From a phage, in the NCBI GenBank assembly GCA_033580375.1, contig GCA_033580375.1_4527.1: a DNA stretch of 64,000 nucleotides; one strand, written 5' to 3'. Of the stretch, positions 3,338 through 28,825 are shown in pieces (the first letter of the stretch is position 1; each line of letters starts with the position of its first letter). The position numbers were made by a program, and so were the translations under genes. Under the pieces are notes generated by a model, which saw only the letters and a list, made by a program, of their open reading frames with translations, made no database searches and had not been told where the DNA came from.

Positions 3338-3345
3338 TATAAATA
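3338..3345 (+). promoter_or_regulatory. T4-type late promoter TATAAATA for gene 9
   Basis: Exact TATAAATA about 26 nt upstream of the gene 9 ATG. Confidence 0.7.
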
Positions 3346-22692: not shown

Positions 22693-23352
22693 CTATAGCT
22701 TAAAACAATCATCGCGTTCATTAATCCAATTTCTTATAGTTTTTGCGGATACGTTAAAGAATTCGGCAGCGTAATCGTAGTGGTTAAATTCATGACCTTT
22801 AATAGAAATATCCACAAATACAAATTTCTTACCTTTATTAGAATTCTTTCTAATTTTTGCTTTATGCTCTTCTGATAGTTTTCTACCTTTAAGATGAGAA
22901 TCTCTATTTTTATAAAACTTTTTATTTGCTATAGATTTGTTTTCTCGATGTTCTTTAGATTCTTTAGAACCTAATTTCTTTTTAGATATTTTGGCCCGAA
23001 CTTCTTCAGTCATACCAGCTTTTGTCTTTTCGGATAACATCTCACGATACCCAGGTTCCTGTAAAGCTACTATAACAGGATTACCCTTGCCGCCTAAGGC
23101 TGCATTATAAGTATCTGTTCTCATGACAAAAGCCTCGTCAACTAGTTCGGCTTCCTTAGCATACATCTCTTCAGATGTTTCGAAATTGAAAAGGATTTCC
23201 TTTTTAAAATTCTCTAAGCCGTATTTCTTTATGGATTTTACTATGTTAACCCCGGAACCCATATAAGAATCGTTAACATCTGTAGTGGCATGGGCTCCAA
23301 CATAAATCTTGTTATTAATGAGATTGGTTATTTTGTAAATTAAATAATTCAT
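22693..23352 (-). mobile_element. Free-standing GIY-YIG homing endonuclease (Seg-like, at the T4 segD position between 23 and 24)
   Basis: 219 aa; N-terminal GIY-YIG module (YLIYKITNLINNKIYVGAHATT...YMGSG); basic C-terminal domain. Confidence 0.8.
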
Positions 23353-26615: not shown

Positions 26616-26690
26616 TCCAGTGTTATTTGGTTTGTGCCATTATATACATCAATCTCAAGTTGTGTTTTGTATGCTTTAAAAACGAAGAAA

Positions 26691-26704
26691 GGGGCCGAAG
26701 CCCC
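26691..26704 (-). terminator. Terminator GGGGC-TTCG-GCCCC plus T-tract after hoc
   Basis: - strand: hoc stop, then stem-loop, then CTTCGTTTTT. Confidence 0.65.
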
Positions 26705-26710
26705 TTACGA

Positions 26711-28126
26711 TTATGGATATGTATAGATGATACCAGTTTCCAAAGCAGTTTTATGGATGATGTATCCATTACGTGATTCTTGAACATCAACTTCTGGATA
26801 GTCTTTCATCATCTTCTGAAGAGTGTAACGATGCAGGTAGTATTTACTATCTGGATCGTCAATTTTCCAATCTTTACCTTCTTCAGTCATTTTTTGGATT
26901 TCATCCATAACCCACCAACCACACCAGATGTAAGCTGAAGTACGGTGTGGAAGAGGATGAACATAAGGTAGTTCACCTTCTGGCTCAATTGGAGTCCGTT
27001 CAGCAATAACAACTTCAGCGGTTGAACTAATTGTCTTTGAAGTATAGTTATCTTTAGTTAATACTGCTTCAACTTTAATTGTATGAGTACCAGCTGAGGA
27101 GGTATCAATACTGTAAGTATTAGTAGAATTACTTTCTGCTACGTTGTCTTTCTTCCAAGAATACACAATATTAGTATCACCTGGAGCACCAGTAACAGAT
27201 GCTGTTAAAGTTGCAGTTCCACCAACAGTAGTATTAACTGATGTGGGAGATAAATAAATGGTGGCACTATTAAATGTAGCATTATTAGTTACTACTGTTG
27301 CTTCTGCTGAAATTTCTTTTGTAACATAATTTGATGCAGAAACAGATACGGTGCATTTAAGAGTTTTACTTCCGACCTCGGTTGGAGTGAATTTATACGT
27401 AGCAGAAGTTGCATCTGGAATATTACTGTCATCCATTGACCACTGGAATGATGTAGTAGCACCTGAAGGTGCACCAGAGACATTTGCAGTTAAAGTAATA
27501 GGAACACCAAAGACTGTAGTCGGAGACTCAGGCGTAATTTTTAGTGTTGAAGAATTAGCCTTTTTATTTACAGTCAAAGAAACCGCTGATGATTCTACTG
27601 TTTTATCAACGTAATCAGTTGCAGTCACTGTGACAGAGCAAGTTATAGACTTAGTTCCTTCAGATGTTGGTGTATATTCAAAGGTTGATTGCTTTTGTCC
27701 ATCAACAGCGACCCCGTCAACTTTCCATGTATAAGCAATAGCAGCACCACTAGGTTGATTGCTTACATTAGCAGTGAATGTTGTTGCTGTTCCAATTTCT
27801 ACTGCAGCCGGAGAAGCCGGAGTAACAGCGACGGTAGAATTATTTTCTTTCTTATTAACAGTGATAGTTGTTGACGCTTCAGCTATTTCCGGATCTCCTG
27901 CGGAAAGTGTATTAGTTGCAACCACTTTAATTTTTTTTGTTCCTGCCGGAGAAGCAAGAGTATAATCCATTGTAGCAGCCGTAGACTCCTGTGCTATATC
28001 ATCTACAGTCCAGACGTATGTAATAGTACCATCTGGAGTTTCACCTGCAGGTGTAGCAGTGAATGTTTGTGAACCTCCAATAACCCCTGTAGGAGTTAAA
28101 GGAGATAATGTGACAGTGAATGTCAT
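26711..28126 (-). CDS. hoc: Highly immunogenic outer capsid protein Hoc, enlarged with tandem Ig-like domains
   Basis: C-terminal ~100 aa (EPEGELPYVHPLPHR...GIIYTYP) match the T4 Hoc capsid-binding domain; 471 aa versus 376 aa in T4. Confidence 0.9.
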   Translation of the reverse strand: MTFTVTLSPLTPTGVIGGSQTFTATPAGETPDGTITYVWTVDDIAQESTAATMDYTLASPAGTKKIKVVATNTLSAGDPEIAEASTTITVNKKENNSTVAVTPASPAAVEIGTATTFTANVSNQPSGAAIAYTWKVDGVAVDGQKQSTFEYTPTSEGTKSITCSVTVTATDYVDKTVESSAVSLTVNKKANSSTLKITPESPTTVFGVPITLTANVSGAPSGATTSFQWSMDDSNIPDATSATYKFTPTEVGSKTLKCTVSVSASNYVTKEISAEATVVTNNATFNSATIYLSPTSVNTTVGGTATLTASVTGAPGDTNIVYSWKKDNVAESNSTNTYSIDTSSAGTHTIKVEAVLTKDNYTSKTISSTAEVVIAERTPIEPEGELPYVHPLPHRTSAYIWCGWWVMDEIQKMTEEGKDWKIDDPDSKYYLHRYTLQKMMKDYPEVDVQESRNGYIIHKTALETGIIYTYP

Positions 28127-28135
28127 AAGTTATCC

Positions 28136-28804
28136 TTATTTTAATGTTACGAAAGAAGAATTACGAGTTTCACGAATTAGAACTGATCCATCGCGATTAA
28201 TATAATAAATTAAGCTAAATAATGTTTGGTGAGCAGAAGCATGCACAAAACTGGTTGGGCGAGATTTCCAATCAGGTGTTTCGGCTATCCATTGATAAAT
28301 CCACCAAGGAACAGTAACATATCCTAGGCCTTTGCCTAATTTAATGAGTGTAGGACTAAAATTTTCAGGCAGAACAAATTTTACTTCTTTATTTACCTCT
28401 GACTCAGGCTCTTTTTCAGATTCAACAACCTGAGTAATTGCTTCTTCAAATTTATCATGGTCGAATTCTTTTTCTTGTTCGACAACTTCTAATACTTCAA
28501 CTTGTTCTGTTGGAGAATCAAACAACAGAATAGCTTCTTCTTTAACTTCTTCGTTGGTGAAATTAACACCATCCACATCATCTGCGGCAGTAATTAAATC
28601 AGTAATAGATAATCCATCAGTTTCAGGTAATGGTTCATCAGCCAGTGCGTTAAGAGCTTCTTCGATATCAATAACAATATTATCGAATGATTTTGTTTTC
28701 TTAACACTAATGCCAAATTGTTTCGCATATTCGAACAGTTTAGCTTTGGCTTCCTTTTTATCAGAAAGAGCACGTAACTCTTCAATATAGTCTTTATCGA
28801 TCAT
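28136..28804 (-). CDS. inh: Probable Inh (inhibitor of prohead protease gp21)
   Basis: 222 aa; position between hoc and uvsW as T4 inh; acidic central region. Confidence 0.6.
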   Translation of the reverse strand: MIDKDYIEELRALSDKKEAKAKLFEYAKQFGISVKKTKSFDNIVIDIEEALNALADEPLPETDGLSITDLITAADDVDGVNFTNEEVKEEAILLFDSPTEQVEVLEVVEQEKEFDHDKFEEAITQVVESEKEPESEVNKEVKFVLPENFSPTLIKLGKGLGYVTVPWWIYQWIAETPDWKSRPTSFVHASAHQTLFSLIYYINRDGSVLIRETRNSSFVTLK

Positions 28805-28817
28805 GATATTTCCTCAT

Positions 28818-28825
28818 TATAAATA
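28818..28825 (+). promoter_or_regulatory. Late promoter TATAAATA for uvsW
   Basis: Exact TATAAATA ~30 nt upstream of the uvsW ATG. Confidence 0.65.

Follow-up and report, generated by a model that had tools for sequence, protein, structure and literature searches.

The gene at positions 26711-28126, on the minus strand of the window (the whole 64,000-nucleotide stretch of phage DNA which was analysed), is, as judged from its sequence, an ordinary hoc gene of an RB69-like Mosigvirus of the T4 family and carries the RB69-type allele of a non-essential capsid decoration protein. The best explanation of the whole is very probably an RB69-type Hoc with four Ig-like domains, which would stand on the capsid as a docked fibre and whose Ig-coding part would be an exchangeable cassette. 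The reading frame is intact, starts with ATG and gives a product of 471 aa followed by the stop codon, and the allele was assigned from the ORF map, the PHROG profiles and the identity to RB69. The product was matched at E = 2e-126 by PHROG 1149 ("Hoc-like head decoration"), and PHROG 21694 covered its residues 407-471 at E = 4e-41, while the PDB chains of T4 Hoc were recovered by phmmer, with 5vf3_Z at E = 8.5e-141. For the purpose of annotation the gene can be described as hoc, with four Ig-like domains and a capsid-binding domain.

RB69 Hoc (AAP76093, 471 aa) is 98% identical to the present protein over 471 aa, has the same length and locus with all domains colinear, and differs from it by only a handful of substitutions; its gene is annotated as a 1416-bp CDS in AY303349, which was deposited in 2003. 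The Hoc of the Shigella phage ESh27 is 99% identical. The RB69-type four-Ig Hoc is not new, as database entries for it date back to 2003 and many phages carry it. A noteworthy expansion had been implied in the initial annotation, and this was not borne out, since the allele is the standard one of RB69 and Hocs having four or five Ig domains are common in Tevenvirinae and have been described. Four-Ig Hocs of T4 relatives are already on record (PMC9960720), and Hoc homologs with 1-10 Ig domains, RB69 Hoc being listed with a pI of 4.72, are reported in a second source (PMC10385173). As a discovery the gene carries little weight, the protein being RB69 Hoc save for a few residues and the variable Ig number being documented; the sole mildly interesting extension is the exchange of cassettes at the domain level between conserved anchors.

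The domain organization was analysed against T4 Hoc (376 aa; PDB 5VF3, 8T1X, 8T9R), which has the same inh-hoc-24.3 neighbourhood. In the MAFFT global alignment both proteins are colinear with one gap only, which lies in T4, and phmmer splits the match in the same way (residues 1-201 to T4 1-201 and residues 289-471 to T4 194-376). The difference of length noted in the initial annotation, 471 against 376 aa, comes from a complete ORF with a single block of 95 aa (residues 190-284) between T4 domains 2 and 3, and this block is what T4 Hoc is without. From the N-terminus, and with all coordinates on the minus strand, domain 1 (D1; aa 1-93, positions 27848-28126) is the counterpart of T4 D1 with 62% identity and forms the first repeat of the HMM described below; domain 2, of Ig-like/PKD type (D2; aa 94-189, positions 27560-27847), is the counterpart of T4 D2 with 57% identity; domain 3 (D3; aa 190-284, positions 27275-27559) has no T4 counterpart and faces the single gap; and domain 4 (D4; aa 285-377, positions 26996-27274) is the counterpart of T4 D3 with 43% identity and z = 22. 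At the C-terminus the capsid-binding domain (aa 378-471, positions 26714-26995), which is homologous to residues ~281-376 of T4 Hoc, is identical to T4 Hoc at 89 of 91 positions (98%), and its claimed closeness to T4 is thereby upheld. The Ig domains of T4 are strongly diverged from those of the present Hoc, with dS of 0.95-1.9, at or near saturation. Both proteins are acidic, with a pI of 4.76 here and 4.74 in T4 Hoc.

Internal repeat alignment, structure prediction and Pfam domain annotation had been named initially as checks on the extra length, and all three were performed. The alignments among the four repeats gave z = 9-22 above shuffled controls for all pairs, and those of a repeat with the C-terminal domain gave z of about 0-5, which is background. 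An HMM built from the repeats found exactly 4 copies in the present Hoc, at 114-119 bits each, and 3 copies in T4 Hoc, so that the excess is exactly one domain, in agreement with the "about one extra domain" first proposed. The same proposal spoke of four to five repeats of about 90 aa; four is correct and five is not, and a five-domain reading was ruled out, because the HMM counts four repeats, to which the last 94 aa of the protein bear no resemblance. A core tryptophan occurs once per repeat at a spacing of 95 residues (W39, W134, W229 and W324). In domain 4, D341 is aligned to D246 of T4 Hoc, which is reportedly the residue in Hoc domain 3 where a gut-on-chip experiment selected a substitution. 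A domain-3 mutation of this kind is mentioned in PMC10385173, with no residue number in the passages concerned.

The AF2 model of the full protein, made with a 50-sequence alignment, has four confident all-beta sandwiches over residues 1-377, with 10-residue block means of pLDDT of 83-96 (84-95 in D1 and 89-96 in D2) and of 74 in the last block. By Foldseek the full model resembles four-Ig proteins (Dscam, ICAM-5) and the RB49 Hoc structure 3SHS. When D3 was predicted alone it gave seven strands at a pLDDT of 91.9, values of 92-96 being reported across its models, and its Foldseek matches comprise an Ig C2-type domain, clostridial PKD domains, the phi29 prohead chain 8f2n, the N4 capsid chains 9e99 and 9lbz, and RB49 Hoc, on which it is superposed with a TM of 0.73 and an rmsd of 3.1 A. 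RB49 Hoc, whose N-terminal three Ig domains are seen in 3SHS, has the same fold in a linear beads-on-a-string arrangement; its sequence identity to the present Hoc is about 15%, and it has three Ig domains where the present one has four.

The Pfam search gave a divided result, as Ig and PKD families were found on the whole protein and fell below threshold on D3 alone. On the whole protein I-set, Ig_3, PKD, Ig_2 and PKD_3 exceed the cut-off, and the best stretch for I-set (32.4 bits, cut-off 23.7) and for Ig_3 (32.5, cut-off 30) is domain 4. Scanned alone, D2 reaches 26.5 bits for PKD, over the cut-off of 23.5; D3 alone (aa 190-284) has no Pfam family above the gathering threshold, its best scores being Big_7 at 20.6 (cut-off 24.1) and PKD at 17.6 (cut-off 23.5), and D1 alone gives nothing in Pfam. 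For D1 and D3 the Ig assignment is therefore based on the homology among the repeats and on the structure predictions. According to its model D3 has an Ig-like fold and fits no specific Pfam family.

The one observation that would suit another source of the extra length, such as a linker, low-complexity sequence, an unrelated insert or two ORFs fused by an artefact, is the sub-threshold Pfam result for aa 190-284. The probability of such an origin is negligible. The block scores 115.9 bits over its full length against the repeat HMM, it aligns to the three other repeats in the z range given above, its seven-strand sandwich is predicted with high pLDDT and matches Ig/PKD folds, and ORFs of identical length are carried by independent genomes. 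A linker or an unrelated insertion had been stated at the outset as the finding that would overturn the Ig-like reading; it is refuted by the repeat homology, the HMM, the D3 model and the Foldseek matches, and D3 is instead a beta-sandwich alignable to its neighbours. The extra length is thus Ig-like, as had been claimed, with repeat homology, HMM, AF2 and Foldseek in agreement.

Within the protein the nearest relative of D3 is D2 (39-40% identity, z = 22), T4 D2 also being among the most similar domains, and the divergence of D2 from D3 equals that of any other domain pair in this Hoc. D3 would be an old and strongly diverged relative of D2, situated between the counterparts of T4 D2 and D3. 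A recent tandem duplication of D2 specific to this phage would also make D2 the closest match, and recent D2 duplications are known in the HP3-type 472-aa and in the 568-aa Hocs; it is nevertheless very improbable here and was rejected, because the two domains share so little identity, a DNA-level repeat is absent and the same D3 is widely carried. Tandem Repeats Finder gave in hoc only a trivial 15-bp match of 2 copies, from which it follows that no recent duplication took place, and D3 is found at an identity of at least 90% in 31 GenBank phage records, RB69 and phiC120 included, the next best matches being at 45% or less. In phiC120 domain 3 is identical to the present D3.

The other long Hocs were built differently. 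The HP3-type 472-aa and the UGKSEcP1-type 568-aa proteins have the same plan of N-terminal Ig domains and a conserved C-terminal domain, with the extra domains placed after D2, and their overall identity to the present Hoc is 54-60%. The extra domain of the HP3-type protein is an 80-82% copy of its own D2, and the 568-aa proteins have three D2 copies which are 74-84% identical; in all compared proteins that are not of the RB69 type, the domain aligned with the present D3 is only 36-44% identical to it. Among the best 120 clusters (90% identity) of a large protein collection, 80 have a length of 376-379 aa, 31 of 468-472 aa and 9 of 567-570 aa, and by the HMM proteins of the 376-, 472- and 568-aa classes contain 3, 4 and 5 Ig repeats, respectively.

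It is possible, though on balance doubtful, that four domains are the ancestral state, or at any rate not a derived one, and that three-domain Hocs such as that of T4 arose by loss, in which case there was no "expansion" at this locus. The low identity of D2 and D3, being that of any domain pair, means that any duplication is old, and Hocs with four Ig domains are spread over several genera (Klebsiella phage Marfa, ValerieMcCarty04, HP3-type). Of the two forms reported in Jiaodavirus, that of 468 aa is given as the usual one and that of 373 aa as a deletion (PMC9960720), and the natural chimera P0009 resembles the RB69-type allele with a T4-type last domain and without D3. On the other side, the recent tandem duplication of D2 in the other four- and five-Ig alleles, with copies 74-84% identical, shows that gain occurs in the family, and RB49 and T4 Hoc have three domains each.

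How the Ig part varies among close relatives was analysed with SHSML-52-1, a congeneric Shigella phage having a Hoc of 376 aa. The DNA identity between the two phages is 97-100% through inh (98-100%), the C-terminal domain of hoc and the downstream genes, and it is 50-70% over hoc codons 1-380. The dS is 1.4-2.1 in the Ig domains, which is saturated, against 0.05-0.25 in the flanks, and the dN/dS of the Ig domains is 0.2-0.35. As the synonymous sites of the Ig part are saturated between flanks which are nearly identical, the Ig part was replaced by an anciently diverged allele and has not evolved fast in place. Positive selection in situ was considered as the main cause of the Ig divergence and was rejected, because saturation extends to the synonymous sites and dN/dS has the low range just given. 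The diversity of Hoc among close relatives is then to be read as the result of old alleles being exchanged and entire domains being shuffled, and not of rapid local mutation.

The same two flanks stand out when the comparison is made with T4. The dS of the hoc C-terminal domain (26714-26995) is 0.28, the lowest of the locus, and that of the last ~62 codons of inh (28136-28321, minus strand), which have 89% nucleotide identity to T4, is 0.51; gp24 has 0.58, and the values for rnlB, 24.3 and codons 1-160 of inh are 1.7-2.3. The low dS of the hoc C-terminal domain and of the inh 3' end suggests either gene flow between genera or a constraint acting on the DNA.

Several natural Hocs are chimeras of the two types. 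P0002 has T4-type D1 and D2 followed by RB69-type D2, D3 and D4; in P0009 RB69-type D1 and D2 precede a last domain of the T4 type; and other mixtures of T4-type and RB69-type Ig domains are seen in P0003 and P0013. In these four proteins, which comprise 3-, 4- and 5-domain forms, the joins are at domain boundaries, and this points to recombination at the domain boundaries, by which the 3-, 4- and 5-domain versions of Hoc may have been produced. An inter-domain junction (...SLTVNKK) is near-invariant. Across Tevenvirinae the Ig-coding part of hoc may act as an exchangeable cassette between the conserved 3' end of inh and the C-terminal domain of hoc. A fuller version of this proposal, which we offer tentatively and at a little under an even chance, is that the Ig-coding two-thirds of hoc is a recombination cassette at the domain level, anchored by the inh 3' end, the hoc C-terminal domain and possibly the ...SLTVNKK junction, in which Ig modules are swapped, added and dropped, with Hocs of 3, 4 and 5 domains and the hybrids of T4 and RB69 type as the outcome, and that the RB69-type D3-D4 is a separate module whose ligand specificity is its own.

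Through its C-terminal domain Hoc would dock as a monomer, one in the middle of every gp23* hexamer. We infer this docking from a binding domain that is almost identical to that of T4 and from the conserved tryptophans 401, 404 and 405, which correspond to T4 Trp 306, 309 and 310. According to PMC10385173, T4 Hoc is a monomer at the centre of the gp23* hexamer, each prolate head carries 155 copies of it and growth does not require it; its tryptophans 306, 309 and 310 contact gp23*, and its C-terminal domain was solved on the capsid (8T1X/8T9R). The AF2 model of aa 379-471 has a pLDDT below 50, which is probably caused by the near-invariant alignment in this region. Disorder of these residues was not accepted as an explanation, because the 98%-identical domain of T4 is solved, and with the AF2 model being of low confidence the fold of this part rests on the sequence identity to that T4 domain.

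The four Ig-like domains would extend in series from the N-terminus as an outward, flexible and acidic fibre (pI 4.76), with one module more than the three of T4, whose fibre is ~180 A long. They may adhere weakly and reversibly to the surface of bacteria or to glycans of the mucosa and help in virion dispersal, as has been proposed for T4 and RB49, and the added D3 would lengthen the fibre and contribute one more potential binding surface. The data may be of use for Hoc phage display, for prediction of phage immunogenicity and for studies on mucus adherence of therapeutic T-even phages.

From the ORF map and PHROG the gene order is gp23, a seg-like gene, gp24, rnlB, 24.2, 24.3, hoc, inh and uvsW, the products being gp23 (major head protein), a homing endonuclease, gp24 (vertex protein), RNA ligase 2, those of the small conserved ORFs 24.2 and 24.3, Inh and the UvsW helicase, whose gene is divergent. 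This is the T4-type order of head genes and it agrees with the annotations of T4 GT7 and RB69. The upstream neighbour of hoc is inh (prohead protease inhibitor; 28136-28804, minus strand; PHROG 1051, E = 4e-90), and the surrounding 5 kb has 97-98% DNA identity to RB69, phiC120 and other Mosigvirus genomes.

The signals around the gene were read from the sequence. A Shine-Dalgarno-like AAGGA (28133-28137, minus strand) lies 6 nt upstream of the hoc ATG and overlaps the stop codon of inh. A GC-rich hairpin resembling an intrinsic terminator, AAGGGGCTTCGGCCCCTT followed by a T-run, is located at 26689-26706 (minus strand), 5 nt past the hoc stop, and in phage NRG-P0074 a terminator is annotated at the same site after hoc. 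No exact copy of the T4 late-promoter motif TATAAATA was found on the minus strand upstream of inh or hoc; a near match, TAATAAATA, is present upstream of inh on this strand. In the whole 64-kb window TATAAATA was observed 17 times against 6.7 expected, mostly just 5' of late structural genes, with examples on the plus strand at 3338, 14624, 16674, 20199, 23688 and 28818, and uvsW is preceded by one copy (28818-28825). ARAGORN found no tRNA genes in the 64-kb window (1-64000).

Some mobile or interrupted genes were also observed at this locus. The homing endonuclease ORF between gene 23 and the vertex gene 24 (219 aa, 22693-23352, minus strand; PHROG 314, E = 5e-54) occupies the position of T4 segD, and its segment is covered to at least 80% in only 38 phage records, RB69 being absent among the best matches listed. 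The SegD-like endonuclease appears to be a mobile gene of variable presence within Mosigvirus. In the annotation of NRG-P0074 (PQ480333.1, 1906-3322 of the locus compared) the RB69-type hoc is split into ORFs of 201 bp and 1215 bp, which means either that the gene is interrupted or that the sequence contains an error. Between inh and uvsW this phage and ESh27 (1542-2285 of its locus) both have an ORF of 744 bp, labelled a homing endonuclease in NRG-P0074 and a hypothetical protein in ESh27; the window is without this ORF, and its inh-uvsW spacer is only 50 bp.
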